In this document: one piece after another, positions 20,500-53,590 of the stretch | How the letters are laid out: each line of letters begins with the position of its first letter | Position numbering within the stretch: the stretch's first letter is position 1 | NCBI GenBank assembly: GCA_049590215.1 | Contig: JBAWCJ010000468.1 | Span: forward strand, 2,633-66,632 | Origin: Candidatus Sulfotelmatobacter sp. | Lineage (GTDB): Bacteria > Acidobacteriota > Terriglobia > Terriglobales > Acidobacteriaceae | Direction of reading: 5' to 3' | DNA: 64,000 bases | The notes under the pieces: generated by a model | What the model saw: only the letters and a program-made list of their open reading frames with translations | The model's database searches: none | What the model was told of the DNA's origin: nothing | Translations under genes and position numbers: made by a program

Positions 20500-20512
20500 G
20501 GTTTTATTCGCC

Positions 20513-31087: not shown

Positions 31088-31642
31088 ATGAGTACCGGTC
31101 AAGCGCTACGGATGGATTCGGGAGCTGTGAGCGAGGTTCCGGTTCTCGATATTCCCCAGTGGTATGCGATCCGCACGCGGTCCCGCCACGAAAAAATGGT
31201 TGCCGACCAACTGGAGAAGCAAAGTATCGAAAGCTTTCTTCCTTTGGTGAAGAGCACGCGCAAATGGAGCGACCGGAAAAAGGAAGTGGAACTGCCGCTG
31301 TTTTCCGGTTATAGCTTCGCGCGCCTCGCGCTTTATTCCCCAGATCGTCTGCGCGTTCTGCGGACTCATGGAGTGGCAGGGTTCGTCGGGGTGCGGGGAG
31401 TGGGGATTCCAGTTCCCGAGAAGCAGATTGAGAGTTTAAGAACTCTGTTGGCGAATAAGATCCCGATGACGGACCGGCCTTTTCTTCAAATCGGCCAGCG
31501 GGTACGCATCAGGGGAGGGGCCCTGGATGGAATTGAGGGCATTCTCGCTGCTCAGGACGAGCGCAATTTAGTGATCTCGGTCGAGCCGATCCATCGTTCG
31601 TTGTCGGTCTGCATCGATGGATACCGCTTCGAGCCGATTTAA
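31088..31642 (+). CDS. NusG-paralog transcription antiterminator (RfaH/UpxY-like) of the polysaccharide locus
   Basis: NGN domain WYAIRTRSRHEKMVADQL...LPLFSGYSFARL and KOW motif IGQRVRIRGGALDGIEGIL. Confidence 0.8.
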   Translation: MSTGQALRMDSGAVSEVPVLDIPQWYAIRTRSRHEKMVADQLEKQSIESFLPLVKSTRKWSDRKKEVELPLFSGYSFARLALYSPDRLRVLRTHGVAGFVGVRGVGIPVPEKQIESLRTLLANKIPMTDRPFLQIGQRVRIRGGALDGIEGILAAQDERNLVISVEPIHRSLSVCIDGYRFEPI

Positions 31643-37661: not shown

Positions 37662-38423
37662 TTGAGCAGAAATTTCGAGCTGTTACAACAAGTCGGCGGC
37701 ATTCTCGAGTTGCCGGTATCACCGGACGAGGCTAAGGAGCCCGTCAGTATGCCTCCGGTAGAAACGGGGCCGTCCACTCCTGCGCTGGACGTGGCCGGAA
37801 AAGTACGGGACGAGATCGCCAAACTGGTACTCAACTTATTCCTGCTGCCAGCGGCACAGGGCCGGCGGCAAGTCATTTTTGCGGGGGCGGAACCGGGCGC
37901 TGGATGTAGTTGGATGTGTGCCCGCGTCGCTGAGGTGCTGGCGTCTCAGGTTCACGGGTCGGTCTGCGTGGTGGACTGCAATTTGCGCTCTCCCGGGTTG
38001 CATCAGCAATTTGCGGTGGACAATCACTTCGGGCTGTCGGACGCTCTGCTTCGACCCGACCCTTTGCAGCAGTATGTCCGGCAGCTGTCCCGCAAGAATC
38101 TGTGGCTTTTGAGTTGTGGCTCAAGCACGGAGAACTGGGAGGAAAAAGTAGGGTCAGGAAATCTCCGCCACCGCCTGGCTGAGTTGCGGTCTCAGTTCGA
38201 CTACGTGCTCATGGATGTGGCGTCGACAAACACCTGCAACGACGGCATCGTTCTTGGCAGTTCGTCGGATGGGATCGTGCTGGTTCTGAAGGCGAACTCC
38301 ACGCGGCGGGATGTTGCCCGGAAAGCTCTGCAAGAGCTTAAGGCCGCCAACGTACCGGTTCTGGGGGCTGTGCTGAACCAGCGCACATTTCCTATCCCGG
38401 ACAACATTTACAACAGTCTGTAA
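37662..38423 (+). CDS. BY-kinase-like (CpsD/EpsG-type) P-loop protein with a degenerate Walker A
   Basis: TTG start. GAEPGAGCSWM sits where G-x-G-K-S/T is expected. Walker A' VCVVDCNLRSP and Walker B YVLMDVAS are present. There is no C-terminal Tyr cluster. Confidence 0.7.
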   Translation: MSRNFELLQQVGGILELPVSPDEAKEPVSMPPVETGPSTPALDVAGKVRDEIAKLVLNLFLLPAAQGRRQVIFAGAEPGAGCSWMCARVAEVLASQVHGSVCVVDCNLRSPGLHQQFAVDNHFGLSDALLRPDPLQQYVRQLSRKNLWLLSCGSSTENWEEKVGSGNLRHRLAELRSQFDYVLMDVASTNTCNDGIVLGSSSDGIVLVLKANSTRRDVARKALQELKAANVPVLGAVLNQRTFPIPDNIYNSL

Positions 38424-38546: not shown

Positions 38547-39986
38547 ATGATTAGCCGTAGACGTGACGTTCTCTTAAATGCGCTCAAGTTGTTCGACCTG
38601 GCGGTGATGGTGGTCGCTTTCGGACTGGCCGCCATACCAACATCAGGAGTGGGTCATACCATCTCGATGGCCGATTTTCTCTCCATGCGGGTCAAGGTGG
38701 GGAACTGCTTCATTTTTCTTGGCTTGATCATTCTGTGGCACGCTTTGTTTTCGATGTGCGGCTTATATGCGTCGCGCCGGCTCTCTGGCCGCATCGCTGA
38801 AGTCACCGACATTATGAAGGCAACCTCGCTAGGCACGCTCTGCCTGGCGGGTGCATCCATGCTGTTTCACATCCGTATGGCAACTCCTGCCTTCGCGGTG
38901 GTTTTCTGGTCTCTCAGCACCCTGATGCTGATTTGCAGCAGACTCACGATGAGGGCTGTGCTGGTGCAAACCCGCTTGCACGGACGAAATCTTCGCCACA
39001 TGCTGATCGTGGGCAGCAATGCCCGTGCCGTTCAATTTGCCGATAAGATCCAGTCCCGGCCCGAGCTTGGCTATCGGGTAATCGGATTCGCCGACCAACC
39101 GTGGGAGGGTATCGGTCAGGTCAGCGAAAGCGGCTATTCTCTGGCTTGCAACCTCGACAGCCTGCCTGATTTTCTCCGGAAAAGCGTGGTGGACGAGGTC
39201 GTGATTGCTTTGCCGATACGATCATTCCACGACGACGCCTCTCGAATCGCGGCGCTCTGCGAGGAGCAAGGCATTCTCTCCCGAGTTCTGACCAACATCT
39301 TCAATCTCAAGATGGCGCGCTCGCATGCCGAAGACCTGGAAGGCGACTCCTGGATTACGCATCAAAATGGAGTCACCGAAGGCTGGCCGCTGATTGTGAA
39401 ACGGATCGTCGATTTCGCGGTTGCGCTGGTCGCGGTTATCGTCATCCTTCCGGTTATGCTTCTGGTGGCGCTGGTGATCAAGATGACCTCACCCGGCCCC
39501 GTTCTTTTTGCCCAGAAGAGGGTTGGACATAACAAGCGAAAGTTCACCATGTTTAAATTCCGGACCATGGTGGTCGATGCCGAACAGCAAATGGAGCAAC
39601 TGCAACACCTGAACGAGGTCACTGGGCCGGTATTCAAAATCAAGAACGATCCACGCATTACTCCGATCGGGAAATTCCTACGCAAGACGAGTCTCGACGA
39701 GGTGCCGCAGTTGTTCAGCGTGTTGAAGGGGGATATGAGTCTGGTGGGCCCGCGGCCACTCCCCATCCGCGACTACGAAGGCTTCAATGAAGACTGGCAG
39801 CGCCGGCGTTTCAGTGTGAAGCCCGGAATCACTTGCTTATGGCAGGTTCAGGGGCGGAGTTCCATTTCATTTGAAAAATGGATGGAGCTGGATCTTCAAT
39901 ACATCGACAAGTGGTCCCTGTGGCTCGATTTCCAGATCTTGCTGCAGACCATCCCGGCCGTGCTCAAGGGCTCGGGCGCTGTTTGA
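38547..39986 (+). CDS. priming polyprenyl-phosphate sugar-phosphate transferase (WcaJ/EpsB-type bacterial sugar transferase)
   Basis: AAGGAG upstream. Multi-TM N-terminus. C-terminal KRIVDFAVAL...KRVGHNKRKFTMFKFRTM...DEVPQLFSVLKGDMSLVGPRP. Confidence 0.9.
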   Translation: MISRRRDVLLNALKLFDLAVMVVAFGLAAIPTSGVGHTISMADFLSMRVKVGNCFIFLGLIILWHALFSMCGLYASRRLSGRIAEVTDIMKATSLGTLCLAGASMLFHIRMATPAFAVVFWSLSTLMLICSRLTMRAVLVQTRLHGRNLRHMLIVGSNARAVQFADKIQSRPELGYRVIGFADQPWEGIGQVSESGYSLACNLDSLPDFLRKSVVDEVVIALPIRSFHDDASRIAALCEEQGILSRVLTNIFNLKMARSHAEDLEGDSWITHQNGVTEGWPLIVKRIVDFAVALVAVIVILPVMLLVALVIKMTSPGPVLFAQKRVGHNKRKFTMFKFRTMVVDAEQQMEQLQHLNEVTGPVFKIKNDPRITPIGKFLRKTSLDEVPQLFSVLKGDMSLVGPRPLPIRDYEGFNEDWQRRRFSVKPGITCLWQVQGRSSISFEKWMELDLQYIDKWSLWLDFQILLQTIPAVLKGSGAV

Positions 39987-40377
39987 CCTTTGCCTGGGTT
40001 CTTGGGAACGATCTCTTTCACACCAACTCACCCGACCGCGAGAGCGTATCCACCTTTCTCATGGTCAGCGCGGATGCAACAAAGTAGTGATCAACCTACC
40101 GTTCTCTCCGATTGTTCTTCCGATGGGAACCGGCCTATGTTTTCTGTCCCAGTACCAAAGCATCCGTGACAGTTTTCTCATTGATTCCGATGTGCTGCGT
40201 TTTTCCACACCGGGTGAACTGTCGCTGACCCAGAGCCAGATGAGCTGGCGCAGCGTCGCGCGAAGCGAGGCTCAGGTTTGGATGTGCCGGTGGGGCTCGC
40301 GTCAAGGTTTCCACGTACCGGCTTCGCCGGGAACACTGGTTTCCGCATCATAAGGAGAGCCAAAAGGCAGTAACAAC

Positions 40378-41478
40378 ATGTCAAGAGAGTCAGCAGAGAA
40401 AAATAATCCCGGTTCCGCAGACGGACCGTTGTTTGTCGTAGGCCTTCCACGCTCTGGAACCTCATTGCTATATGCCCTACTCAACCAGCATCCGCAGATC
40501 GCGTTGCTTTATGAGGGTGATCTGCCAGGGTTGTGGCCGCTTTTCCTGACTCGGAGAAGCAAGTCGCAGTGGCAGGAGAGATGGAATTTCTGGAACGGCT
40601 CCATAGAGCGCCATCAAATCGATACCAGCAGAATACCCTCGGATGTTTCGGACATAAGGACTGCTACCGAGATCGCTTATAAGCAATATGCGCAGAAGAA
40701 AAATGCTTCTATTTGGGGTTGCAAGTCTCCGAACCAATACGACTCTCTGGTTCGGCTGGCGGTTCTCTTCCCGGATGCCCGGTTTGTGATAATCCGGCGG
40801 GATCCCGCAGATATATGCCGCAGTATCGTACGGGCGAGCAAAGACTCCGCGCGTTTCAAACAGAAAGGCCTGACGCACCGAGCCTTGCTGGGCTCCTACC
40901 GGCTGGGAATAGAACGAGACCGCCTTGTGCAGCGCGGAGTTCCGGTTCACGTACTTCAGTATCAGGACTTGATACGCACTCCCGCTGACGAATTGATGAA
41001 AATCTGCAGCTTCTTGGGGATTCCATTCCATTCCGGCATGACTTCCCTTGAGAATGCGGATCGGTCGGCAATTATGGAGGGTACGCACAACACTTTGGTG
41101 AGAGGCGAAAGAATTGTAGCTTCCCGCCGGCAGCCAGAGGTGCTTCCTGTAGGATTTAGAAGGAAGATTGAAAGATACAAAAACCTTTGGCGACAGGGGC
41201 ACGTCGATTTGGCAATTTTCCCGCCCTCGGAGGAAGACAATCTGACCACGCCGTCACAGTTAGAAAGAGCCTGTGACGAGCTTCGATATCGCCTTCTACG
41301 AAGCTGGGACTCATTCGTTGTTTTTGTCTACTGCTTTGGCCCCATAAGGTTGTTAACGGCCTATCGTGCTTGGAAAGGCATGATGCGATTCGCATTCGCG
41401 AGCAACGTCGCAGGGGATGCGCAGGAAGCTGCTCCTCACCCCACACAGACCCCGGCAAGCACAAGCAGCTCCGACTAA
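40378..41478 (+). CDS. PAPS-dependent sulfotransferase family protein
   Basis: 5'-PSB loop LFVVGLPRSGTSLLYALL and 3'-PB-like FVIIRRDPADICRSIV. Confidence 0.75.
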   Translation: MSRESAEKNNPGSADGPLFVVGLPRSGTSLLYALLNQHPQIALLYEGDLPGLWPLFLTRRSKSQWQERWNFWNGSIERHQIDTSRIPSDVSDIRTATEIAYKQYAQKKNASIWGCKSPNQYDSLVRLAVLFPDARFVIIRRDPADICRSIVRASKDSARFKQKGLTHRALLGSYRLGIERDRLVQRGVPVHVLQYQDLIRTPADELMKICSFLGIPFHSGMTSLENADRSAIMEGTHNTLVRGERIVASRRQPEVLPVGFRRKIERYKNLWRQGHVDLAIFPPSEEDNLTTPSQLERACDELRYRLLRSWDSFVVFVYCFGPIRLLTAYRAWKGMMRFAFASNVAGDAQEAAPHPTQTPASTSSSD

Positions 41479-41497
41479 AGGAGCATTCCTTAAACAC

Positions 41498-44400
41498 ATG
41501 ACCCAGACGGCTCAGCTATCCGATCGTAAACACACGCAGGTGGAGAAATCTGTGTCCGACAAGTTCGAAATTACTCGTCGTGCACCGGATGAAGCGATGC
41601 CTCTTTCGTATGAACAAGAGCAGGTGTGGTTGCACGCACAACTGGCGACTAACCTTCCCTTGTACAACGAGCCGGGAACTATCCGCTTTCTAGGCGCTCT
41701 CGACGTTTCCGCACTGGAGAAGAGCTTTAATGAAATTCTGCGGCGCCACGAAGCGTGGAGGACGTGCTTTGAGATTGTCGACGGTGTACCGGTACAAAAG
41801 GTACAGCCGAGCCTCAAGGTTTCCCTGCCAGTGCTCGACCTGCGAGCCCTTCCTGCTGAGCGGCGGGAGTCTGAAGCTTTACGTATTGCGACCGAGGATG
41901 CAAGAAAACCGATCGACCTGACGAAGGCCCCGCTTTTCAGAACCAGGCTGATGCGGCTGGAGAACGAAGAGTACCGGTTGTATCTCACCCTGAGCCATAT
42001 TATTTTTGACGGCTTTGCCATTTATCGGGTGCTTCTGCCAGAACTCTCGACGCTATATGAGTCGTTCGCTGCTGGAAGACAGTCGCCATTACCGGAACTC
42101 TCCATACAATACGCAGACTATGCCTGCTGGCAACGCCGGAACATAACGGAAGAAACGCTTGCCAAGGATCTCGACTATTGGAAGCGAGAACTTGCAGGAC
42201 CTCTCCCGGAGTCGTATTTGCCGGTGGATCGCCAACGGGTGGGACCGCAGACATTTTGTGGGGCCACGTATCCCTTCCAGCTAAGCTCCCGATTAAACAG
42301 TGCCCTGATCGCGCTCAGCCGGTCCCAGGGAGTCACTCTATACCAGATACTCCTGGCCGGGTTTGCTGCTCTTTTAAGCCGCTACTCCGGTGAGCCGATC
42401 ATCCCCATCGGCAGCCTCACCGCGGGGCGCAAGCTTCATGAGACTCAGTCGCTGCTGGGGTATTTCGTGAACACAGTGGTCCTGCGGTTGGAGCTCTCGG
42501 GCGATCCCAGCTTCCGTGATTTGGTGAAACGGGTGCGCAATGTTGCCCTCGGCGCTCTGGAACACGACAACTTACCCTTCGAGCATCTGGTCAGGGAAAT
42601 GCGAACCACGCGGGACTCTTCGCACAATCCCTTATTCCAAGCGTTGTTTTCGCTGGCGCCACCTCCGCTTCCGAATCTCGATCCGGCGTGGCAGATGACA
42701 CTGACAGAGGTCGATACCGGCGTCTCAAAGTACGACCTCCATTTCGAGATCGATCAGCGTGGGGATGAAATTCTCCCACGATTTCATTACAGCACGGACC
42801 TGTTCGATCCGGCCACGATTGCGCGCATGGCGAACCACTGGATGAATCTGTTGGAAGGCGCAGCCGGCAGTCCCGACCTGCGCGTGTCGCAATTGCCTCT
42901 GCTTTCCGGGCAGGAGAAAGAGCAGCTGATAGTCGAGTGGAACGATACTGACGCCGACTACCCGCGCGACAAGAGTATTCCGCAGCAGTTCGCCGCCCAG
43001 TGTGAGCGCACTCCGCATATCGTTGCGGTTCGGGAAGGGAATCAGCAACTCACCTTTTGCCAGTTGGATGAACGCAGCGATAGTCTGGCAGAATACCTCC
43101 GCAACCTGGGAGCAGGACCCGGAACGACAGTCGGGTTGTGCATTGAACGATCGATAGACATGGTGGCCGGACTGCTCGGCATTCTGAAAACGGGAGCAGC
43201 CTATGTTCCCCTGGACCCTTCGTATCCGATGGAGCGACTCGGTTTCATGCTGAAGGATTCTGGGGCAGCGATTGTAATCGCACAGCGCAAGTCCGCGGGC
43301 AGGATTCCAGCGAACAGCGCGCGTGCCGTCTGGTTGGATTCGAACTGGAGTGCGATCTCAGCCGAGCCGACGGATTCGCCAAGCCTGAATTCGCCAAGCC
43401 TGAATTCGCCAAGCCTGAATTCGCCAAGCCCGGATTCGCCAAGATCGGTTCGGCCCACCAGCAGTCAACCGGATGATACTGCGTACGTGCTTTATACCTC
43501 AGGTTCGACGGGGACGCCGAAGGGAGTGCAGGGGACGCACCGGGCGTACCTGAATCGCTTTGCCTGGATGTGGCGGGCTTATCCGTTTCAGGCCGGGGAA
43601 GTTTGCTGCCAGAAAACCAATCTTGGTTTCGTGGATTCGGTGTGGGAGATCTTCGGGCCGCTGCTGGCCGGCGTGCCCAACGTGATCATCCCGCAGGAAA
43701 TCATAGGAGATCCCGAAGAACTGCTCGCCACGCTGGCGCGGGAGCAGGTGACGCGCATCGTGCTGGTGCCCTCGCTTTTGCGCGTGTTGCTCGATCACGC
43801 GCCACAACTGGGCAAGCGAGTGCCGCAACTGAAGTTATGGACCTGCAGCGGCGAAGTGCTGCCCACGGATTTGGCGGAGCGCTTCCTCGCCGGTTTTCCT
43901 GAGGCCACGTTGCTGAATCTTTACGGCTCGGCCGAGGTGGCAGCCGACGTCACCTATCACGAGGTCAGCCACAAAGACCTGCTTGCCGGCTCGATTCCTA
44001 TCGGCCGGCCGATTGCCAACACGCAAGTCTACATTCTGGATGGCAACAGGAATCCGGTGCCCGTCGGGGTGCGGGGCGAGATCTATGTGGGCGGCGACAA
44101 TCTGGCGCGGGGCTACTGGCGGTCTCCGGAGCTGACCGCGGAGCGCTTCGTCGAAAATTCAATTGCGCCTGAGCGTTCACCGCGGCTATTCCGCACGGGC
44201 GACCTGGGCCGCTTCAAATCGACGGGTGAGATTGAGTATTTGGGGCGAGTGGACAACCAGGTGAAGCTGCGGGGAATGCGGCTGGAGTTGGGCGAGGTCG
44301 AGGCAGCGCTCAGCGGGCATCCGGCAGTGCGCCAGGCAGTGGTGGCGCTCACACCCGATCAGCAGCACCTGGCGGCCTACATCACGGCAGAGAACGGACA

Positions 44401-45670
44401 GGAGCCCTCGGCCGAGGAATTGCGCCGCTACTTGCGGGCTCGCCTGCCTGAATACATGGTGCCAGCCAGCTATAGCCGGCTGCAGCAGTGGCCGCTGTTG
44501 CCCAGCGGTAAAGTGGATCGTCGTGCATTGCCGCAGCTCGGCCACGCGGAGTCTGTACAGCAGTCTGTCTTCGTGGCTCCTCACGATGCGGTGGAGGATC
44601 AGCTGCTCACGATCTGGAAGGGCATTCTCAACCTGGATGCGATCAGCGTCACCGATAACTTCTTCAGCATTGGTGGCTACTCGCTGGCTTCGGCACGGCT
44701 ACTTGCACGCATTCAGCAAACTTTCGGCAGGAAGCTAGGACTCAGGGACGTGTTCGAAGCCCCCACGATCGCTGAGATGGCCGAGCTCATACGGAGGGAG
44801 GGCAAGAGTTCGGATATGCAGGGCATCCTACCGCTCCAGCCCAACGGTTCGCTGCCCCCCTTCTTCTGGGTGCGGGGTGGTCCTCTGTTCCTGCCACTTT
44901 CGCGGCGACTCGGTCCTGAGAGGCCTTCCTTCGGACTGCAATTGTCGAGTTCCCTCGTCAGTAAATTACCTGCTACGTACAAGTTTGAAGATATCGCGTC
45001 GAGCCTTATCCAGGTGATGCGTGCGGTGCGGCCGAATGGCCCTTACTACCTGGGTGGGCTGTGCGTCAATGGTGTGGTCGCGTATGAAATGGCTCGGCAG
45101 TTGGTGGCTGCGGGAGAATCCGTGCCCCTGCTCGTCATGTTGGATTCGCAAAATCCAACTTATTATTTCGATTATTCCCCGGACGGCCGGACATCTTTTC
45201 TTTATCAGAAACTCAAGTTCCATCTCGGAAAGCTAGCCAAGCTGAGGCGCACCGGGCTTCGGCACTATATTCAGGAACGCTCCGCCGACCTACAGAGAAG
45301 GTGGAATCAGCGGATGTGGAACAACGTTTACCAGCGTGGTAATCGGCTGCCGGAAGACCAGCTTGGCGATATGGGCAGCCTGGTGCATCCGGCCGCAATG
45401 AAGTATCAGCCACAACCATACGGCGGTCGAGTGATGTTCTTCCAATCGGCAGACTGGCCAAAAGGCGGATACTGGAAATTTCAGCGAGGATGGCCAGGGT
45501 TCGTACGCGGCCTGATGGAAGTACACACGATCGATGCGGAACACGAAGAGATGCTTCACGACCCCAATGTTGACGGCATCTCTGGTCCAATCCTGTCGTA
45601 TCTGGCCGACGCTGGCAAGGCAAATTACGCCCCAATCAATTCAGACGCCACCTTGGCCGGGCGAAGTTAA
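41498..45670 (+). CDS. single-module NRPS, C-A-T-TE (module 1; non-alpha-amino-acid-type A domain, Cys-type TE)
   Basis: C motif SHIIFDG (41993..42013). A-domain motifs LKTGAAYVPLDP, YTSGSTGTPKG, NLYGSAEV, GDLGR, GKVDRRAL. T-domain motif FFSIGGYSLAS. TE elbow GGLCVNG (Cys codon at 45062..45064). Confidence 0.9.
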   Translation: MTQTAQLSDRKHTQVEKSVSDKFEITRRAPDEAMPLSYEQEQVWLHAQLATNLPLYNEPGTIRFLGALDVSALEKSFNEILRRHEAWRTCFEIVDGVPVQKVQPSLKVSLPVLDLRALPAERRESEALRIATEDARKPIDLTKAPLFRTRLMRLENEEYRLYLTLSHIIFDGFAIYRVLLPELSTLYESFAAGRQSPLPELSIQYADYACWQRRNITEETLAKDLDYWKRELAGPLPESYLPVDRQRVGPQTFCGATYPFQLSSRLNSALIALSRSQGVTLYQILLAGFAALLSRYSGEPIIPIGSLTAGRKLHETQSLLGYFVNTVVLRLELSGDPSFRDLVKRVRNVALGALEHDNLPFEHLVREMRTTRDSSHNPLFQALFSLAPPPLPNLDPAWQMTLTEVDTGVSKYDLHFEIDQRGDEILPRFHYSTDLFDPATIARMANHWMNLLEGAAGSPDLRVSQLPLLSGQEKEQLIVEWNDTDADYPRDKSIPQQFAAQCERTPHIVAVREGNQQLTFCQLDERSDSLAEYLRNLGAGPGTTVGLCIERSIDMVAGLLGILKTGAAYVPLDPSYPMERLGFMLKDSGAAIVIAQRKSAGRIPANSARAVWLDSNWSAISAEPTDSPSLNSPSLNSPSLNSPSPDSPRSVRPTSSQPDDTAYVLYTSGSTGTPKGVQGTHRAYLNRFAWMWRAYPFQAGEVCCQKTNLGFVDSVWEIFGPLLAGVPNVIIPQEIIGDPEELLATLAREQVTRIVLVPSLLRVLLDHAPQLGKRVPQLKLWTCSGEVLPTDLAERFLAGFPEATLLNLYGSAEVAADVTYHEVSHKDLLAGSIPIGRPIANTQVYILDGNRNPVPVGVRGEIYVGGDNLARGYWRSPELTAERFVENSIAPERSPRLFRTGDLGRFKSTGEIEYLGRVDNQVKLRGMRLELGEVEAALSGHPAVRQAVVALTPDQQHLAAYITAENGQEPSAEELRRYLRARLPEYMVPASYSRLQQWPLLPSGKVDRRALPQLGHAESVQQSVFVAPHDAVEDQLLTIWKGILNLDAISVTDNFFSIGGYSLASARLLARIQQTFGRKLGLRDVFEAPTIAEMAELIRREGKSSDMQGILPLQPNGSLPPFFWVRGGPLFLPLSRRLGPERPSFGLQLSSSLVSKLPATYKFEDIASSLIQVMRAVRPNGPYYLGGLCVNGVVAYEMARQLVAAGESVPLLVMLDSQNPTYYFDYSPDGRTSFLYQKLKFHLGKLAKLRRTGLRHYIQERSADLQRRWNQRMWNNVYQRGNRLPEDQLGDMGSLVHPAAMKYQPQPYGGRVMFFQSADWPKGGYWKFQRGWPGFVRGLMEVHTIDAEHEEMLHDPNVDGISGPILSYLADAGKANYAPINSDATLAGRS
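43373..43447 (+). repeat. in-frame 15-bp tandem repeat x5 inside the NRPS-1 A domain
   Basis: RATTCGCCAAGCCYG units encode DSPSL-NSPSL-NSPSL-NSPSP-DSPRS, located between A-domain core motifs A2 and A3. Confidence 0.9.
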
Positions 45671-45687
45671 GCCTCTTTCCCGCTCCG

Positions 45688-48600
45688 ATGAACAATCCTA
45701 ACGCGAGACCATCGATCGCTTCGAACTCCGAGTCGGGTGGCGTCCTGCTTACAAGTGAAGACGCTTCCCGGGGACTCTCTGCGTCTGCCGTCGTCCATCC
45801 GCCATTGGTTGGGTCAATACCGCTGTCGATCGCGCAGCAGCAGGTTTGGTTACATGGGCAACTTGCCGCTGGCGTTCCACTTTATAACGAGGTCCTGATT
45901 CTTGCACGAGCCGGTCTTCTCGACCAAGAGGCACTCAAGCGAAGCTTCGCAGAAGTCATTCGTCGTCACGAAACGCTGCGCACGACTTTTGCGGTCGAAG
46001 ACGGGAGTCCGGTGCAGGTAATCGCCGAGCACCATGAGATGGATCTGCCAGTCACGGAATTGAGCGGCTTGCCCGGCCAGAACCGCGAGGCCTCGGTCTT
46101 GCGCATCGCGACTGAAGAAGCGCGGCAGCCGTTCGATCTGACGAAGGGCCCGCTGATTCGAGCCCGTCTGCTGCGGTTATCGAAACAGAATCACATTCTC
46201 GTCGTGACGCTGCACACCATCATTGGCGATGAATGGTCGTTGAGTATTCTGGCGGATGAACTGGCCGCGCTCTACGAAGCATATTCGGCTGGCGAACCAT
46301 CCCCTCTGCCCGATTTGCCGATCCAGTATGCGGATTATGCGCATTCGCAAAGAGAATGGTTACAGGGGGATGTTCTCGACCGTCACATCTCTTATTGGGG
46401 GAAGCGACTCGCCGACCTTCCAGTCCTGGAGTTACCAACGGATCGAGTCCGGCCAGCGGTACAGGGATTTCGCGGGGCACGAGAGCCGCTGCAACTCTCA
46501 AGAGATTTGAGCGAATCACTCAAGGATCTAAGCGAACTAGAGGGAGCACCTCTCTTCGTGACGCTCGTGGCCGCATTCCAAACGCTGCTGTCACGTTACA
46601 CAGGACAGCGCGACATCGTGGTTGGTTCGATTGTCCCAGGACGCGAGGAAGTTGATGCGGAAAATCTGATTGGCCTCTTTGCTCACACTGTACTCATGCG
46701 TGCTGAGATCGAGGGGGATGCTACTTTCCGGGAATTGCTGCGGCGTGTGCGGGATCTCTCGCAGCGCGACTGCGAATATCAGAACATGCCCTTCGACGGC
46801 CTGGTCGGCGAACTCCAGTTGGGGCGCGATCTGAGCCGCAACCCGCTTTTTCAAGTGTTGGTTTCCTTAACACCTGCGATGTCCGCCGCTCGAGGCGGTT
46901 GGGAGATCGTGAATCTCGACGTGGATGGCGGTGCGGCGAAGGTTGATTTACAACTCCAACTCTACGACCGGGCGGACGGGATCTTCGCTCGTTTTACTTA
47001 CAACCCAGACATTTTTGACGCCGCCACGATCAGCCGGATGGCTGGTCATTTTCAGATATTGCTGGAAGGCGTTGTAGCCAATCCTGATCAGCGTCTTTCC
47101 AAATTGCCGCTCCTCACCCAGGCGGAGACACATCAACTGCTCGCGGAATGGAATGAGACGCGAACGAGCTATCCCGAGGATTGGCCGCTTCATCATCTGT
47201 TTGAGTCGCAAGTGGAGCGAACTCCTGAGGCGACCGCGGTCGTCTTTGGGAACGAGCGCCTGACCTATCGGGAGCTGAACCGGCGAGCCAATCAATTGGC
47301 ACACCATTTGGTGAGCCTGGGAGTTGGTCCGGATGTGCTGGTCGGTATCCTTGTGGAACGTTCGCTCGAGATGGTCGTGGGGTTGCTCGGAATCCTCAAG
47401 GCTGGCGGCGCCTATGTGCCGCTGGACCCGGCATATCCAAGTGAGCGCATTGCTTTCATGTTAGAGGATTCTGAAGTGGTGGTTTTGCTCACACAGCACC
47501 ACTTGCTTGAGACCATTCCTGATCGCCGCGCCAAAGTCGTTGTCCTGGACGCCGATTGGCATGAAATTGCAAAAAAGGAAGCTAAGAATCCAACCCATAC
47601 GGGCGGACCCGAGAACCTCGCATACGTGATCTACACCTCAGGGTCGACCGGTAAACCTAAGGGAGTCCAAATTCCGCATCGCGCGGTGGTCAACTTTCTT
47701 ACCTCGATGAGTCACACGCCGGGGATGACCGCCGCCGATCGACTGCTCTCTGTCACTACCCTCTCTTTTGATATTGCAGGTCTCGAAATCTATTTGCCTC
47801 TAGTCGTCGGAGCATCGGTTGAGATCGTCAGTCGCGAAGTTTCATCCGACGGATATCAATTGCTTGCAAAGCTTGCCAGCTCAGGCGCCACGGTGATGCA
47901 AGCCACACCCGTCACATGGCGCATGCTGATAGAAGCGGGCTGGAAGGGCACTCCGAATCTGAAGATGTTGTGCGGTGGCGAAGCTGTTTCCCGCAAGCTT
48001 TCCACTCAATTACTGCACAGCGGCGGCTCCTTATGGAACATGTACGGTCCAACTGAGACCACCATCTGGTCGACGTGCTCCAGGATCGCGCCCGAACATG
48101 AACCGATCGTCATCGGCCGGCCAATTGCGAATACAGACATTTTTATACTGGACGACCTCCTCCAGCCAGTGCCGATCGGTGTCGCCGGCGAATTGCACAT
48201 CGGTGGTGACGGCTTGGCGCGAGGATACTTCAAGCGGCCCGAGCTGACGGCGGAAAAGTTTATTGCCAGTCCATTCGCACAAGACCCAACTGCGCGCCTC
48301 TATAAAACCGGGGATCTGGCGCGCTATCGTCCGAACGGAGACATTGAATGTCTGGGACGGATCGATCATCAGGTGAAGCTTCGCGGATTCCGCATCGAAT
48401 TGGGCGACATTGAATCGGCACTGAGACAACATCGCGGCGTAAACGACACCGTTGTTGTCGCTCGCGAGGACACGCCCGGCGACAAACGCCTGGTGGCATA
48501 TTTTGTCCCCTCGCAGGAAGCACCGCCAACGGTTGGTGAGCTGCGAGATTTCCTGAAAGAAAAGCTGCCGGAGTACATGGTGCCCTCGGCGTTTGTGGCA

Positions 48601-49743
48601 CTCGAAGCGATGCCGCTCACGCCGAACGGAAAAGTCAACCGTCGGGCGCTTCCAGCCCCGGAGCAGACAAGCCTGGCGCCATCTGAGAGTTTTGCCTCGC
48701 CAAGAAATGGTCTCGAGTTCCAGTTGGTAACGATCTGGGAGAACGTGCTTGAGGTTCGGCCGATCGGTATCCGGCATAGTTTCTTTGAGCTGGGTGGAAA
48801 TTCACTGGTTGCGGTTCGGCTCATGCAGCGCATCGAGCAGACATTTGGAAAGCACTTGTCCATGGCCACATTGTTCCAGGCTCCAACCATCGAACAATTG
48901 TCTGTGATTCTTCGCCAGGAAGGGTGGGCGCCGGCATGGTCCTCGGTAGTGGCAATTCAAACCGGCGGATCAAAGCCGCCTTTCTTCTGTGTCCATGGAG
49001 TCGGAGGTAATGTCCTGCGTTTCTACGCCCTCGCGCAACACCTCGGATCGGATCAACCTTTTTACGCGCTGCAAGCGCAAGGGCTGAATGCGGATTATCC
49101 ATGTCACACACGAGCGGAGGACATGGCGGCCCATTACGTCAAGGAAATGCGCACCGTTCAGCCGGAAGGGCCTTATTTTCTGGGAGGCTACTCTTTCGGC
49201 GGCATGGTTGCTCTTGAGATGGCTCAGCAACTCATCGCACAAGGCGAGGAGCCGCCCGTAGTAGTGCTGTTCGACACATTGTGCGCCGCTGCACGGGAGA
49301 CTTCGTTTTCCCACAAGCTGACTTCATTCTCGTCGCCGCTCCTCAATATTCTGCGAATGTCAGGAACGGAAAGGCGGGCTTATGTTTCGCGAGTTGCCAC
49401 GGCTCCGCTGCGAGCAATCCAATGGGGACTGCACGTCGCGAAACTGCCACGCAAGGTCAGGAAGATCCGAAACGCCTGCCTAGAAGCTGCAAGATATTAC
49501 GTGCCGCAAGCTTACCCTGGGCGGGTCATTCTGTTTCGGTCGAGTCGCGAGCCTCTCGGGGGACTTGGTGATCCGTACGCCGGATGGAGCGAATACCTTA
49601 CGAACGGACTCGAGGTCCGTGAAGTGAAAAGCAGTCACGACAACATTCTTCTCGAGCCGCAAGTTCAACTTGTAGCCGAGCAACTAAGAACTTGTCTGGA
49701 CGAGGCACAGCGAAGCTGCCAATTCAAGGGGATGATCCAGTGA
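45688..49743 (+). CDS. single-module NRPS, C-A-T-TE (module 2; glycine-type A domain, degenerate C motif)
   Basis: C motif HTIIGDE (46213..46233). A-domain motifs LKAGGAYVPLDP, YTSGSTGKPKG, NMYGPTETT, GDLAR, GKVNRRAL. T-domain motif FFELGGNSL. TE motif GGYSFGG (Ser codon at 49192..49194). Confidence 0.9.
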   Translation: MNNPNARPSIASNSESGGVLLTSEDASRGLSASAVVHPPLVGSIPLSIAQQQVWLHGQLAAGVPLYNEVLILARAGLLDQEALKRSFAEVIRRHETLRTTFAVEDGSPVQVIAEHHEMDLPVTELSGLPGQNREASVLRIATEEARQPFDLTKGPLIRARLLRLSKQNHILVVTLHTIIGDEWSLSILADELAALYEAYSAGEPSPLPDLPIQYADYAHSQREWLQGDVLDRHISYWGKRLADLPVLELPTDRVRPAVQGFRGAREPLQLSRDLSESLKDLSELEGAPLFVTLVAAFQTLLSRYTGQRDIVVGSIVPGREEVDAENLIGLFAHTVLMRAEIEGDATFRELLRRVRDLSQRDCEYQNMPFDGLVGELQLGRDLSRNPLFQVLVSLTPAMSAARGGWEIVNLDVDGGAAKVDLQLQLYDRADGIFARFTYNPDIFDAATISRMAGHFQILLEGVVANPDQRLSKLPLLTQAETHQLLAEWNETRTSYPEDWPLHHLFESQVERTPEATAVVFGNERLTYRELNRRANQLAHHLVSLGVGPDVLVGILVERSLEMVVGLLGILKAGGAYVPLDPAYPSERIAFMLEDSEVVVLLTQHHLLETIPDRRAKVVVLDADWHEIAKKEAKNPTHTGGPENLAYVIYTSGSTGKPKGVQIPHRAVVNFLTSMSHTPGMTAADRLLSVTTLSFDIAGLEIYLPLVVGASVEIVSREVSSDGYQLLAKLASSGATVMQATPVTWRMLIEAGWKGTPNLKMLCGGEAVSRKLSTQLLHSGGSLWNMYGPTETTIWSTCSRIAPEHEPIVIGRPIANTDIFILDDLLQPVPIGVAGELHIGGDGLARGYFKRPELTAEKFIASPFAQDPTARLYKTGDLARYRPNGDIECLGRIDHQVKLRGFRIELGDIESALRQHRGVNDTVVVAREDTPGDKRLVAYFVPSQEAPPTVGELRDFLKEKLPEYMVPSAFVALEAMPLTPNGKVNRRALPAPEQTSLAPSESFASPRNGLEFQLVTIWENVLEVRPIGIRHSFFELGGNSLVAVRLMQRIEQTFGKHLSMATLFQAPTIEQLSVILRQEGWAPAWSSVVAIQTGGSKPPFFCVHGVGGNVLRFYALAQHLGSDQPFYALQAQGLNADYPCHTRAEDMAAHYVKEMRTVQPEGPYFLGGYSFGGMVALEMAQQLIAQGEEPPVVVLFDTLCAAARETSFSHKLTSFSSPLLNILRMSGTERRAYVSRVATAPLRAIQWGLHVAKLPRKVRKIRNACLEAARYYVPQAYPGRVILFRSSREPLGGLGDPYAGWSEYLTNGLEVREVKSSHDNILLEPQVQLVAEQLRTCLDEAQRSCQFKGMIQ

Positions 49744-51137
49744 ACGGATTAGGACTTCAGGAACCCGCACCACTCGTCAAGCCTGCATCAGGAGAGGGCG
49801 CTGTCGGCCGTTTTCCTCTGAAGAGGATCTTGTCAATCGATCGCGCGGGCACAGTGCGGAAGCTGGTTCCATGGGTGATGAAGGGGGGGCTGGCCATCCT
49901 GGACCAGGGACTCTTCGCGGGATCTAATTTTGTGATTAGCATTCTGCTGGCTCGGTGGTTGACGCCCGAGCAATATGGGAGCTATGCGGTCGCCTTTTCA
50001 GTCTTCGTGTTCATGCTTATGTTCCACCAAGCATTACTGCTGGAGCCCATGCTGGTATTCGGCAGTTCGGCCTATCGTCATTGTCTCCGTGGTTACCTGA
50101 AAGCCTTGCTTTTGATTCATCTGGGCATGAGCTTGGCGATTGTTTTGGTACTAGGCATCGCAGCCGGCGTTGCGTTTGAGCTCGGGGAAACGAGCGGCTT
50201 GCCCGGCGCGCTCCTCGGTGTCGCTTTCGCAGCGCCGTCGATCTTGATGCTCTGGATAATCAGGCGAATCTTCTATGTGAAGCTTTCCCCTGCGCCTTCC
50301 GCTGGTGCGTCGCTTCTGTACTGCACTCTGATAATGGGAGGACTGGTGCTACTCTATCGCCATCATTACCTTTCACCTTTGTCCTCATTCCTGCTCATGG
50401 GAGTCGGGAGCTTGGTGACCAGTGCCGTGCTGCTCACTTATCTCGGATGGCGGCTTTCCTCAAGCCAGGATGCGCCCAGGCTACTGGACATTTGGCGCCG
50501 GCATTGGCGCTATGGACGGTGGGCTATAGGGGCCAATGTCATGATGTGGGTTCCGCTCAACGTCTTCTATCCGCTGCTCAGTAGTTTGTCCGGCCTGGCA
50601 GCAGCGGGTGAACTGAAGGCCTTGATGAATTTTGCTTCGCCCATGTATCAAACCAGTGCGGCACTTAGCCCACTCATGCTTCCTCATGCGGCTCGAGTGC
50701 TGGAGAAAAGATCACATCATGGCGCTAGCTCCGTTCTGTGGCAGCAGACCTTGTTGAGCGTTTCTTATTCAGTCCCGTACTGGGTTGTGCTTCTTCTGTT
50801 TCAGATGCCCATCTTTCGAATGATTTACTCTGGCCGATACACGCAAGTGGTCTACTTGATGCCCATCATTGCGTTGGCATGTGTGTTCGGCAGCGCGTTT
50901 TTCGGCCCGGCAAACGTGTTGCGCGTCATGGAGTCTCCGCGTTTGGTTTTCGCCGCCGTTTCCATTTCGAGCTGTGTCGCCGTCGCAATCGGCATTCCGA
51001 TCACTTGGGCCTGGGGAGTTAAAGGGGCAGCCTGGAGCATGGCTTTGTCGGAAGTACTGGCTTTTGTGGCGGCTGTCGTCCTGCTTCGCCGCAAAGCCCG
51101 TAAGTTATCCGAGGCGGCGTTAAGTGCAACCGCGTAG
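49740..51137 (+). CDS. Wzx-like oligosaccharide flippase (MOP superfamily)
   Basis: About 12 predicted TM segments. N-terminal ILDQGLFAGSNFVISILLARWLTPEQYGSYAV is typical of polysaccharide flippases. A possible GTG start at 49740 overlaps the NRPS-2 stop (GTGA). The start is uncertain. Confidence 0.7.
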   Translation: MNGLGLQEPAPLVKPASGEGAVGRFPLKRILSIDRAGTVRKLVPWVMKGGLAILDQGLFAGSNFVISILLARWLTPEQYGSYAVAFSVFVFMLMFHQALLLEPMLVFGSSAYRHCLRGYLKALLLIHLGMSLAIVLVLGIAAGVAFELGETSGLPGALLGVAFAAPSILMLWIIRRIFYVKLSPAPSAGASLLYCTLIMGGLVLLYRHHYLSPLSSFLLMGVGSLVTSAVLLTYLGWRLSSSQDAPRLLDIWRRHWRYGRWAIGANVMMWVPLNVFYPLLSSLSGLAAAGELKALMNFASPMYQTSAALSPLMLPHAARVLEKRSHHGASSVLWQQTLLSVSYSVPYWVVLLLFQMPIFRMIYSGRYTQVVYLMPIIALACVFGSAFFGPANVLRVMESPRLVFAAVSISSCVAVAIGIPITWAWGVKGAAWSMALSEVLAFVAAVVLLRRKARKLSEAALSATA

Positions 51138-51246: not shown

Positions 51247-52797
51247 ATGTCCGACATAGTGACCAATTCGAGCGCCGCCCTCAAACCGAACCCTCGCCCC
51301 GCGAGAATCGATCTACGTTCGGTCGCTTGGTTTACGCTCTTTTTATTAGTAGGTGGCTTGGCGGTCCTTCATCCCCTCATTGTGCTGGGCTGCCTTGGGG
51401 TTGTAGCCGTGTTGGGCCTCTGCCGGCTATTAGTCACTTATGTGCAGCGCGCGCACCTGGAATTCTGGCAGGTTCTCACTCTGGTTGCCCTGACGGGTTA
51501 CACGTTGTTGACTCGTGGATTCGAGAATCTGACTGTTCACGTCGGCGGGTTCCCGATCATCGTCGGTTATGTACTAATCTACGCCTCCCTCGGTTTGGCG
51601 GTTTTTTCCCGGCGGCAATTGGTAGCAAGCGCTCTGAAAGAACCTTCCGTGCTGTGCATGCTGGCCTTGCTTGTCTTCGCTCTGCTCCACCTCGCCGTGG
51701 ACGTTCCTTCGTACGGGATTTGGGCCCTTCGCGACAGCACGATGTGTCTCGACGGTATGTTCATGCTTCTAGGGATGGCCTGGGCCATGAAGAGCAACAA
51801 CATCGCTTTCCTGGCGCGATGGCTGCTCGGCCTCTACGTTTTGAACATGCTGTACGTCTACACGATGCCCTGGGGCGAGAGGCTGTGGTCCTGGTCTCCT
51901 GCAAGCGGCGTTTTTCTCAGGGTGCCGATACTGGGAGATTTCAGTGGCGCGGGCGACATATTAGTGGACGGCGCCATGTTTTGCCTCTGCGTCGGTTGCT
52001 ACCTGATCAGCCGTCCGAGTTGGTTGATGCCCCTGCTGGCGATGGGGCAATTCCTGGGAGTTGCGATCACCCAGGGCAGGCGGCAGTACATAGGAACTGT
52101 GATCGTTCTTGTTATCCTTGGCCTCTTAGGCGAAGGCAAGAGATTTGCGAAACTCCTCGTCCTGATCCCCGCAGCCGTAATCGTGATCTTCCTGGCGACC
52201 AGTATCGGAGGCCTTAAGATAGCGGGCCGAATTGGCGAGGTAAACCTGAACTTTTTCGAAGCCCATCTTCGAAGCGTTGAGACCTCTGAGGGAACGCCGG
52301 GAAGCTCTGTTGAGAGTCGCTTCGACATGGCCGACCAGGCCTTCCGGCATTTCTTCGCGCACCCGGTGGTCGGTGAAGGGTTCGGTCGACCGCTGCTCAC
52401 GGATATTGACGAGACCAATGGCGCGGTTACTCGAATTCCGCATAACTCAAGTTTGACCTACCTGGCCAGGCTGGGGGTGGTCGGATTCGTTCTTTGGATT
52501 GCCTTTCATTTCCTCTTGATAAAAAGATTCGTCACCGTGCTTCGCCACAGAAGTTCCAGCGACGACAAGCTGGTATCCGCCTTCGTGTTATGGCTCTTTC
52601 TGTTTTACGTGCTCTTTGTGAATGTAAGTTTGGTGGAGGGCCCTTTCGAGTTCCCCTCAGGCGCTGTCCCGTTCTATTTCTTCATGGGTCTCGCTCTTGG
52701 ATTGATGCGTTGGCAGTTGTCCGACAGGAACAAACGTCAAAACCAAGCATCTGCGTTGGCCAATAGCGCAAGCATTCGAGCAGGCGAGTTCGCGTGA
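51247..52797 (+). CDS. O-antigen ligase/polymerase family (Wzy_C) membrane protein
   Basis: Polytopic membrane protein with a Wzy_C-like loop: RIPHNSSLTYLARLGVVGFVLW. Confidence 0.75.
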   Translation: MSDIVTNSSAALKPNPRPARIDLRSVAWFTLFLLVGGLAVLHPLIVLGCLGVVAVLGLCRLLVTYVQRAHLEFWQVLTLVALTGYTLLTRGFENLTVHVGGFPIIVGYVLIYASLGLAVFSRRQLVASALKEPSVLCMLALLVFALLHLAVDVPSYGIWALRDSTMCLDGMFMLLGMAWAMKSNNIAFLARWLLGLYVLNMLYVYTMPWGERLWSWSPASGVFLRVPILGDFSGAGDILVDGAMFCLCVGCYLISRPSWLMPLLAMGQFLGVAITQGRRQYIGTVIVLVILGLLGEGKRFAKLLVLIPAAVIVIFLATSIGGLKIAGRIGEVNLNFFEAHLRSVETSEGTPGSSVESRFDMADQAFRHFFAHPVVGEGFGRPLLTDIDETNGAVTRIPHNSSLTYLARLGVVGFVLWIAFHFLLIKRFVTVLRHRSSSDDKLVSAFVLWLFLFYVLFVNVSLVEGPFEFPSGAVPFYFFMGLALGLMRWQLSDRNKRQNQASALANSASIRAGEFA

Positions 52798-52822
52798 ACT
52801 AAGCTTGAGCGCACTCCTAAAC

Positions 52823-53590
52823 ATGGAAATACCAAGAATTGTTACTACGAGTTGGGACGATGGCGATCGCGCCGATCTCAGACTTGCTGAGATGCTCCGG
52901 CTTCGGAAGATCCGAGGGACGTTCTACGTTCCGAACACTCCCTATGCGGGACGCCCCGCGCTTAGTCATGCCGACTTGAGGACCTTGTCGTCCGAAGGTT
53001 TTGAAATCGGAGCTCACAGTGTTTCCCACAAACTTCTCTGGGGGCTAACGGCCGAGGAATTAGCCAAGGAAGTGAGCCCCTGTAAGCCGATGCTGGAAGA
53101 CATCCTCGGAACCGAAGTCCGGATGTTCTGTTATCCCTGCGGCCGGTACGACTCGAACGTTATCCGCGCGCTGGAAGCGGCCGGTTATTGGGGAGCACGA
53201 ACCGTACGCATGCTTTCCACGCGGTTGGAGTTCAAACCATTCGAGATGCCGACGACTCTGCAGATAATCCCGCAGCGGAAGTCCAGCTATATCAGGAATC
53301 TGGCAAGAGCGCGAAAAATGGAAGGCCTGCAGGTTTTTCTGGCCCACATGACCAGTCTGGACAATTGGCTCGAACTTGGTAAAAGGCTTTTCGATTCCGT
53401 ATTAGAAAACGGTGGCATGTGGCACCTGTACGGCCATTCGCACGAGATCGAGAAACTGGGTCTCTGGGAAGATCTGGCGGAAATGCTGGACTATGTGGCC
53501 AAGCGGAAAGGCGTGATGTACGTTCCGAATTGCGAGTTGATCCGGCTTCAATCGCCGGAAGGCAGCTACGACGGGAACGGCAAACTGTGA
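52823..53590 (+). CDS. polysaccharide deacetylase (NodB homology, CE4)
   Basis: TSWDDGDRADL (Asp-Asp motif), GAHSVSH (His motif), FCYPCGRY. The start is 52805 (TTG) or 52823 (ATG). Confidence 0.8.
   Translation: MEIPRIVTTSWDDGDRADLRLAEMLRLRKIRGTFYVPNTPYAGRPALSHADLRTLSSEGFEIGAHSVSHKLLWGLTAEELAKEVSPCKPMLEDILGTEVRMFCYPCGRYDSNVIRALEAAGYWGARTVRMLSTRLEFKPFEMPTTLQIIPQRKSSYIRNLARARKMEGLQVFLAHMTSLDNWLELGKRLFDSVLENGGMWHLYGHSHEIEKLGLWEDLAEMLDYVAKRKGVMYVPNCELIRLQSPEGSYDGNGKL

Follow-up and report, generated by a model that had tools for sequence, protein, structure and literature searches.

Why are two nonribosomal peptide synthetases (NRPSs), each with condensation (C), adenylation (A), thiolation (T) and thioesterase (TE) domains, encoded inside an exopolysaccharide (EPS) locus? 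This question is raised by a stretch of 64,000 nucleotides from Candidatus Sulfotelmatobacter sp., a member of the Acidobacteriota from peat soil (contig JBAWCJ010000468.1; hereafter the window, whose own coordinates are used throughout). It carries the genes of a Wzx/Wzy-dependent EPS pathway, and between the priming sugar transferase and the polymerase lie a sulfotransferase, the synthetases NRPS-1 and NRPS-2, and a Wzx-type flippase. The comparison with related loci described below identifies NRPS-2 and the flippase as the conserved core of this arrangement. We propose, with a confidence that is about even, that the NRPS modules load amino acids and that, ahead of flipping, their TE domains hand these on to the lipid-linked repeat unit. 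The elements on which this argument depends are the following.

40141..40236, + strand, scar of a deleted Acetyltransf_6 gene (GNAT, FemAB-like fold), found by tblastn
40378..41478, + strand, sulfotransferase of the 3'-phosphoadenosine-5'-phosphosulfate (PAPS) type (Sulfotransfer_3 7e-31; RSGTS and RRDP motifs visible)
41498..45670, + strand, NRPS-1, C-A-T-TE (Condensation 8e-98, AMP-binding 6e-86, PP-binding 2e-14, Thioesterase 8e-13)
45688..49743, + strand, NRPS-2, C*-A-T-TE (Condensation 6e-97, AMP-binding 3e-93, PP-binding 6e-15, Thioesterase 1e-25)
49740..51137, + strand, Wzx-type (MOP/PST) flippase, a membrane protein of 465 aa, assigned by homologue families and predicted fold

A sequence-only reading of the window had described the sulfotransferase, the two NRPSs and the MOP/Wzx-type flippase as co-directional genes within a Wzx/Wzy EPS locus, and its coordinates and domain calls were upheld, with AsnB as the exception (see below).

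NRPS-2 and the flippase in related loci

The GTG start of the flippase gene at 49740 overlaps the stop codon of NRPS-2 by 4 nt (GTGA; ...ATCCAGTGAACGG). This overlap had initially been made conditional on the GTG being the real start; gene callers pick the same start in the orthologues, giving 465 aa and the 4-nt overlap. Related loci were collected with a Wzx alignment run against one genome per GTDB species, which returned 25 loci, all 25 of them in metagenome-assembled genomes (MAGs), and by a scan of metagenomes of the Joint Genome Institute (JGI), which added 80. The loci were compared by tblastn with all window proteins, and the counts given here take those with at least 1 kb upstream of wzx. 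Immediately 5' of this Wzx family, a gene of the NRPS-2 type that ends in a TE is found in all of the species-level genome loci (24/24) and in 57/61 metagenome loci, across a range of Wzx identity of 47-96%. The median gap between NRPS-2 and wzx is 54-68 nt, and the 4-nt overlap is frequent. Of the four exceptions, L050 has additional genes between the NRPS-2-type gene and wzx, L089 has an A-T protein, a P450 and a free-standing C domain before wzx with no second carrier in the 21 kb examined, and L111 and L112 hold a 51%-identical paralogue in a non-EPS context.

The loci follow several architectures. That of the window has the order priming glycosyltransferase, (sulfotransferase), NRPS-1, NRPS-2, Wzx and Wzy. 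In the commonest one, the priming glycosyltransferase is followed by an Acetyltransf_6 protein (642 aa, GNAT), NRPS-2, Wzx, a Sulfotransfer_1 protein and Wzy. The remaining types contain an A-T protein with a Leu code (DAWFLGNVV), a P450, HQxxxDG C domains, a protein of 380-420 aa and sometimes multi-module lines. Together with the counts, these architectures mark NRPS-2 and Wzx as the conserved core, and NRPS-1 is, judged from this distribution, a later, clade-specific addition to the locus. The synteny of sulfotransferase, both NRPS genes and wzx, for which a search of relatives had been suggested, is confirmed for NRPS-2 and wzx, but the sulfotransferase changes its place and NRPS-1 belongs to one clade.

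In L006, L027-L029, L089, L090, L099 and L114, we observed the Leu-code A-T protein together with a P450 (in some cases carrying a fused C-like domain) and HQxxxDG C domains, a set that recalls P450-recruiting X domains. The protein of 380-420 aa has no Pfam match and always accompanies the Leu-code A-T/P450 set; it may be the missing transferase. Longer NRPS lines occupy the NRPS slot in L006, L113 and L114, with two TE-terminated units in parallel, and in L006 and L114 the longer line is terminated by a Cys-type TE like that of NRPS-1. Given that L006 encodes a separate Gly-specific A-T-TE with an NRPS-2-type Ser-TE after its NRPS-1-like line, two parallel deliveries are suggested.

A second family of loci was found through relatives of NRPS-1 (P0029, P0063) and a search with the flippase of L113, and it occurs in Sulfotelmatobacter-like genomes (L113, L115, L116). 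Its core is a C*-A-T-TE protein of 1336-1341 aa with the C motif HRxxCDE, A-domain codes that are Ser-like or Pro-like, and a Cys-type TE. The stop of this NRPS gene overlaps the start of a 517-aa PF01943/PF13440 flippase gene by 4 nt (ATGA); two sulfotransferases and a low-molecular-weight phosphatase follow. No BLASTP similarity was detected between this flippase and the window Wzx. Near the core lie genes for Wzy, a priming glycosyltransferase, Wzz, a deacetylase, an ATP-grasp enzyme and PAPS synthesis, and in L115 a gene for an Sfp-type phosphopantetheinyl transferase (PPTase) overlaps the NRPS gene. That the same design recurs beside a flippase without detectable similarity is the strongest argument for placing NRPS module and flippase in one pathway. 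The coupling of the NRPS genes to EPS biosynthesis, at first suggested as a possibility, is thus strongly backed by the conserved context and by this second locus family.

The window flippase has no Pfam or NCBIfam match above threshold, PF13440 reaching 15.6 bits, below its cut-off. Of the homologues tested, 7/16 give a match at E <= 1, several of the 456 homologues carry precomputed PF13440 or PF01943 assignments, and the JGI name for them is O-antigen/teichoic acid export proteins. An AlphaFold model (pLDDT 69.7, pTM 0.70) shows the MOP fold, with MATE, MurJ and WzxE structures at TM scores of ~0.7-0.78. The homologue families and the modelled fold place the flippase in the MOP superfamily, and the sequence evidence leans towards its PST/Wzx branch. 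The fold search does not separate Wzx from a MATE exporter, and an exporter role would be compatible with the modelled fold. A scan of the larger open reading frames (ORFs) of the window gave no second MOP/Wzx gene, although Wzy, a polysaccharide co-polymerase (PCP) and an outer-membrane polysaccharide export protein (OPX) are present.

The sulfotransferase behaves differently from this pair. It lies at another site in L007, is absent from that position in L005, and in the single-NRPS loci its place is taken by a gene of the Sulfotransfer_1 type that lies between wzx and wzy. At least one sulfotransferase of either type is found, at varying position, in nearly every locus with enough sequence. 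This near-constant presence at shifting positions assigns the enzyme to the polysaccharide pathway and not to an NRPS sub-cluster. A mobile trio of sulfotransferase, NRPS and NRPS was considered and is ruled out by the L007, L005 and single-NRPS arrangements. The 390-nt gap in front of the sulfotransferase gene (39987-40377) contains the scar listed above, which corresponds to the final 32 aa of a 635-aa protein of L001 (78% identity, E 7e-8 by tblastn). An undamaged Acetyltransf_6 gene (635-642 aa) is present in L001, L011 and every single-NRPS locus; in most related loci it lies intact between the priming glycosyltransferase and the NRPS genes. The 32-codon scar therefore suggests that this gene was lost in the lineage of the window after NRPS-1 had been gained.

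Domains of the two synthetases

The A domain of NRPS-2 (TIGR01733, 463 bits; cut-off 317) has the code DILQLGMIWK, which has been reported for Gly-activating domains (PMC12283262), and Gly is its predicted substrate. The T domain (PP-binding, 56 bits) carries the conserved phosphopantetheine serine in LGGNSL, and the TE has a Ser (GYSFGG)-Asp-His triad of which all three residues are conserved in orthologues. In the C domain, the catalytic second His is missing from the motif HTIIGDE, and it is never present in the orthologues, all of which read H[T/N/A]xxxD[E/A]. Moreover, the N-terminal ~230 aa of this domain are missing in 15/49 orthologues with a complete 5' end, the A, T and TE domains being intact. 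From its sequence, the C domain of NRPS-2 looks like a vestigial, non-catalytic relic; where present, it may keep a structural or other role. The description of both proteins as complete C-A-T-TE enzymes is thus correct at the level of Pfam domains but fails at the C motif of NRPS-2. An amide made by the C domain, as the sequence-only reading had suggested, is unlikely for NRPS-2, given the missing catalytic His and the frequent truncation, and transfer by the TE is favoured. A Gly-specific A-T-TE protein without a working C domain cannot build a peptide, so that the glycyl residue would go to an external nucleophile, unless ATP is wasted on releasing glycine.

NRPS-1 is encoded by the ORF 41417-45670 and probably starts at the ATG at 41498, 19 nt past the sulfotransferase stop (alternative start GTG 41552); a spacer of 17 nt separates it from NRPS-2. 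It is 100% identical across 1372 aa to the NCBI protein P0001. Its C motif SHIIFDG has the catalytic second His, in eight species, and the C domain scores best with the elongation-type domain of Txo2 (274 bits), followed by those of Txo1, a DhbF-like chain and TycC6, all elongation-type as well. The starter C domain of RzmA gives only 57 bits, in what is a proxy comparison by score and not a phylogeny. With a conservation of 88-92%, equal to or above that of the A domain, the C domain is the best-conserved enzymatic domain of NRPS-1. The A domain (TIGR01733, 417 bits; cut-off 317) has the code V-D-W-V-T-S-L-A-D-K, in which the amine-binding Asp is displaced by one position. We take this code to be of the beta-alanine type, for which the literature searched gave no confirming published code; the substrate is probably a beta-amino acid, beta-Ala. 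The earlier suggestion that small amino acids are loaded agrees with both predicted specificities.

The T domain of NRPS-1 (PP-binding, 54 bits) carries its conserved phosphopantetheine serine in IGGYSL, and the TE has a Cys (GLCVNG)-Asp-His triad that is conserved in eight species. A 15-nt tandem repeat with 4.7 copies (43374..43443, + strand) encodes (SPSLN)n and adds (SPSLN)3 to a variable loop just before the A-domain motif A3. It is absent from 7/7 orthologues, which points to a recent in-frame expansion in this genome only. For the TE regions of both synthetases, the best NCBIfam model is the T-TE end of Pks13; the matches are weak (79 and 28 bits), the cut-off of this model being 2100 bits for the whole protein. 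A motif scan found no MbtH-like gene in the window, and no PPTase was found among the window proteins scanned.

Proposed aminoacylation of the repeat unit and competing explanations

The product of the locus would be a sulfated, uronic-acid-containing Wzx/Wzy exopolysaccharide, whose repeat unit would be assembled on undecaprenyl phosphate in the cytoplasm and aminoacylated there by NRPS-derived carrier-protein chemistry. The NodB-type, probably cytoplasmic deacetylase encoded downstream would remove the N-acetyl group from an amino sugar and thereby provide a free amine. NRPS-2 would adenylate Gly and load it onto its own T domain, and its Ser-Asp-His TE would act as an acyltransferase that passes the glycyl residue to a sugar amine or hydroxyl on the undecaprenyl-pyrophosphate (UndPP)-linked oligosaccharide. 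NRPS-1 would load a beta-amino acid, probably beta-Ala, and deliver it through its Cys-Asp-His TE, whose acyl-enzyme would be a thioester suited to aminolysis; before this delivery, its well-conserved SHxxxDG C domain may couple Gly-S-T2 with beta-Ala-S-T1. Sulfate would be added by the sulfotransferase, the decorated unit would be flipped by the flippase that is translationally coupled to NRPS-2, and Wzy would polymerise it. The acceptor, the type of bond and the order of these steps are what we infer from the genes and their domains.

The principle of such a decoration is known from DltABCD, which D-alanylates teichoic acids, and from AlmEFG, which adds glycine to the lipid A of Vibrio cholerae (PMC4278540). 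In these systems, as proposed for the window, a small amino acid is activated by an adenylating enzyme and bound to a phosphopantetheinyl carrier for transfer to an envelope glycopolymer or glycolipid, and the surface charge is changed. In contrast, the window has A, T and the presumed transferase, the TE, fused in an NRPS-derived protein with a relic C domain; the aminoacyl group would be placed on a Wzx/Wzy repeat unit at the cytoplasmic face, and the gene is translationally coupled to wzx. Neither an MBOAT (DltB) nor an LpxL-type (AlmG) transferase was found with Pfam and NCBIfam among the ~40 window proteins scanned. A TE that acts in this way has a counterpart in Pks13, whose terminal TE releases mycolic acid onto trehalose (PMC9210659), that is, the TE of a carrier-protein megasynthase serves as an acyltransferase to a sugar hydroxyl and not as a hydrolase. 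The substrate of Pks13 is, however, a long lipid and its acceptor a free disaccharide, and its similarity to the window TEs is weak. AB3403 (PDB 4zxh) and EntF (5ja1), both recovered as homologues, likewise combine C-A-T-TE in one protein. In EntF, the C domain is active and receives its substrate from EntB, and the TE oligomerises, whereas in NRPS-2 the C domain is either truncated or without its catalytic His, and the context in the window is an EPS locus instead of a siderophore or lipid cluster.

In the NodB/NodA/NodH pathway of lipochitooligosaccharides, an amino sugar is deacetylated, the amine is re-acylated and the product is sulfated, and the streptothricin system of carrier protein and C domain (PCP-C) transfers a carrier-bound beta-amino acid to an amino sugar. 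The logic of deacetylation, re-acylation and sulfation, and of a beta-amino acid on an amino sugar, is shared with the proposed pathway, but the acyl-transfer enzymes are non-homologous and the acceptors are small and soluble, not the UndPP-linked unit of a polymer. EPS loci of the XrtA/PEP-CTERM type are associated with an acyl-CoA ligase, an acyl carrier protein (ACP), alpha/beta-hydrolases and a FemAB-like protein, as defined by TIGRFAM. They resemble the window in their OPX, chain-length protein, Tyr kinase, AAA ATPase, priming glycosyltransferase, deacetylase and GNAT/Fem-like gene, and in combining adenylation, carrier and hydrolase functions, which in the window are fused NRPS domains with amino-acid specificity. 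The XrtA-system models TIGR03007, TIGR03018, TIGR03015, TIGR03027 and TIGR03006 all match window proteins below their cut-offs, and no exosortase was found among the larger window ORFs scanned, small ORFs being unchecked. To our knowledge, no NRPS has been reported in the synechan xss cluster. This cluster is similar to the window in that sulfotransferases are combined with Wzx/Wzy (PMC8205485). No description of NRPS modules within Wzx/Wzy EPS loci was found in the literature searched, which was an incomplete full-text collection. Compared with the Dlt and AlmEFG systems, the window would thus differ by its fused NRPS-derived machinery, the TE as presumed transferase, the coupling to wzx, and a cassette that ranges from one residue to multi-module lines.

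Both synthetases might instead work in series: NRPS-2 would donate Gly-S-T2, the C domain of NRPS-1 would condense it with beta-Ala-S-T1, and the Cys-TE would attach or release a Gly-beta-Ala dipeptide. This would account for the retained His and the high conservation of the NRPS-1 C domain (SHIIFDG, 88-92%) and for its resemblance to elongation-type domains; furthermore, Gly-S-T2 is the sole other carrier-bound substrate in the window, and a homologous SHIIFDG module in L113 lies within a multi-module line with upstream donors. However, the Ser-Asp-His triad of the NRPS-2 TE is kept in the two-NRPS clade, where a pure donor would not need it, and NRPS-1 precedes NRPS-2 in the gene order. Each of the two units of L006, the NRPS-1-like line and the Gly A-T-TE, has a terminal TE of its own, and no docking domains were identified. 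We consider the series arrangement unlikely. A still smaller probability is given to a small-molecule pathway that is independent of the EPS genes around it, in which a free amino-acid-derived, possibly sulfated metabolite would be exported by the MOP protein. For this protein, which has no Pfam match above threshold, the predicted fold fits MATE drug exporters no less than MurJ and WzxE, and a link between N-acyl amino acid synthases and PEP-CTERM/exosortase EPS loci is known. L113 would also suit such a pathway, with its NRPS, MOP and sulfotransferase genes together and no glycosyltransferase in the 26.7 kb seen. Yet the core enzyme of most loci is one Gly A-T-TE, its C domain dead or truncated, which alone could release only glycine, the sulfotransferase is unlinked to the NRPS genes, the homologues of the MOP protein match the PST families PF13440 and PF01943, and the EPS locus would be left without a flippase. 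Neither do the C domains score as starter types (RzmA 57 bits vs Txo2 274 bits), nor were an acyl-CoA ligase, an ACP or fatty-acid genes found; the sulfated N-acyl amino acids made via a starter C domain that the sequence-only reading had named as its alternative were rejected on these grounds.

The aminoacyl group could also be destined for another component of the assembly line. It might be bound to the lipid carrier or primer, form part of a terminal cap or anchor of the polymer, or be attached to an export-machinery protein. The site between priming transferase and flippase would equally suit a modification of the first lipid-linked intermediate, the PKS-like rkp-1 genes of Sinorhizobium are a modular-synthase precedent for a capsule lipid anchor, and the uncharacterised protein of 380-420 aa accompanies the variant loci. 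This explanation has no direct evidence in its favour, the deacetylase, sulfotransferase and NRPS genes co-vary in the repeat-unit part of the locus, and the shifting specificities (Gly, Ser-like, Pro-like, Leu with P450) look serotype-like and less like a conserved anchor; we regard it as the least probable of the explanations considered here.

Several observations weigh against TE-mediated aminoacylation of the repeat unit as well. The C* domain of NRPS-2, where present, is conserved like the TE (~60% in distant orthologues vs 75% for the A domain), and the C domain of NRPS-1 is its best-conserved enzymatic domain, yet the window encodes no donor for it. No dedicated sugar acyltransferase partner was identified, a TE acting on an UndPP-linked oligosaccharide is without direct precedent, and the beta-Ala assignment found no confirmation in the literature searched. 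The lack of glycosyltransferases in the visible part of L113 belongs here, too. All source sequences are MAGs or metagenomes, and the loci are phylogenetically related, so that part of the synteny may reflect inheritance rather than selection.

If aminoacylation of the repeat unit is nevertheless correct, the loci may represent an unrecognised polymer class, an extension that we put forward tentatively and consider possible rather than probable. It would comprise Wzx/Wzy polysaccharides with nonribosomal side chains of one (Gly) to about five residues (L006, L113) on their repeat units, with the terminal TE as a glycan aminoacyl or peptidyl transferase, a co-evolved flippase, and a swappable cassette that generates serotype-like diversity.

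The surrounding locus and its meaning

The genes discussed above are part of a densely packed region from 31 kb to at least 63 kb in which nearly all genes are on the + strand, as seen in the ORF list and the Pfam and NCBIfam scans of the window. Its further features are:

31088..31642, + strand, UpxY-family NusG-like transcription antiterminator at the head of the locus (NF033644 112.8 bits, cut-off 100; NusG 7e-20)
32206..33210, + strand, AAA ATPase similar to the one associated with the XrtA/PEP-CTERM system (TIGR03015 248 bits, under its cut-off of 324; AAA_22)
33232-35136, - strand, P5C-reductase-like gene and GalE, interrupting the + strand run
35202..35939, + strand, OPX (Poly_export 59 bits, cut-off 28; SLBB)
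35994..37613, + strand, Wzz/PCP chain-length determinant (Wzz 26.7 bits, cut-off 25.5; TIGR03007 1e-40, below its cut-off)
37662..38423, + strand, polysaccharide tyrosine autokinase-like ATPase (TIGR03029 and TIGR01007, both below cut-offs)
38547..39986, + strand, priming polyprenyl glycosylphosphotransferase (Bac_transf 1.8e-71; TIGR03025 424 bits, cut-off 295)
51247..52797, + strand, Wzy-type polymerase (Wzy_C 48.3 bits, cut-off 31.7; 11 hydrophobic segments)
52805..53590, + strand, NodB-family polysaccharide deacetylase (Polysacc_deac_1 3e-19; weak HfsH, NodB and XrtA-deacetylase matches)
53587..54807, + strand, GT4 glycosyltransferase (Pfam/NCBIfam)
55119..55892, + strand, S-adenosylmethionine-dependent methyltransferase (Pfam)
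56093..58105, + strand, heparinase II/III-like protein, 670-aa ORF (Hepar_II_III_C 2e-52; Hepar_II_III_N 2e-14)
58102..59394, + strand, nucleotide-sugar 6-dehydrogenase, uronic acid supply (TIGR03026 355 bits, cut-off 190)
59395..60654, + strand, second GT4 glycosyltransferase (Pfam/NCBIfam)
60771-63317, 848-aa secreted protein closing the locus (signal-like segment at the N-terminus; Flg_new_2 domain, InlB B-repeat-like)

Among the downstream genes named in the sequence-only reading, Wzy (Wzy_C), the deacetylase (Polysacc_deac_1), two GT4 glycosyltransferases, the methyltransferase and the nucleotide-sugar dehydrogenase were found again, but the supposed AsnB is a heparinase II/III-like protein. 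The deacetylase has neither a signal peptide nor a transmembrane segment by hydropathy and is therefore probably cytoplasmic; it is kept in most relatives' loci that are long enough to show it. The heparinase II/III-like protein (56093-58105) has no signal peptide either, and its neighbours within the biosynthetic locus are a uronic-acid dehydrogenase, the deacetylase and the sulfotransferase. This combination recalls glycosaminoglycan tailoring, in which the protein would possibly have an epimerase-like role. The 848-aa protein (60771-63317) is conserved in the close relatives L009, L010 and L033.

In Bacteroides, UpxY-type antiterminators govern individual capsule operons, and the UpxY paralogue at the head of the locus implies read-through transcription of a long EPS/NRPS operon. 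A scan for promoters and terminators gave counts equal to those expected from shuffled sequence, which terminator-like sites thus do not surpass. The GC content shows no break across the locus, and a recent horizontal insertion is thus unsupported. Genes on the - strand upstream of the locus (25187-27567) encode a second dehydrogenase of the UDP-glucose/GDP-mannose type and a protein of the NAD-dependent epimerase/dehydratase family, which would be a further source of uronic-acid precursors. Elsewhere in the window, an EgtB-like gene (DinB_2 and FGE-sulfatase) adjoins an EgtD-like gene (Methyltransf_33) at 3934-6455, suggesting a pair for ergothioneine biosynthesis. The region 16115-23279 encodes on the - strand a 1069-aa PilX_N protein and a 436-aa protein with an N-methylation motif, both type IV pilus- or pseudopilin-like, and a response-regulator-PilZ protein on the + strand adjoins these genes.

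If the proposed transfer holds, it would be a new task for NRPS TE domains, the delivery of an amino acid or peptide to a lipid-linked glycan, and it would provide a genetic basis for amino-acid-decorated polysaccharides, for which the responsible enzymes are mostly unknown. Tools that mine genomes for biosynthetic gene clusters may count these genes as small NRPS clusters; they would be better read as part of a polysaccharide locus. The abundant Acidobacteriota of peat and soil may produce zwitterionic, sulfated polymers with uronic acids, with possible effects on metal binding, water retention and carbon stabilisation. The modular variation between loci, from Gly alone to beta-Ala with Gly, Leu with P450 and multi-module lines, suggests a natural and engineerable route of polymer diversification.

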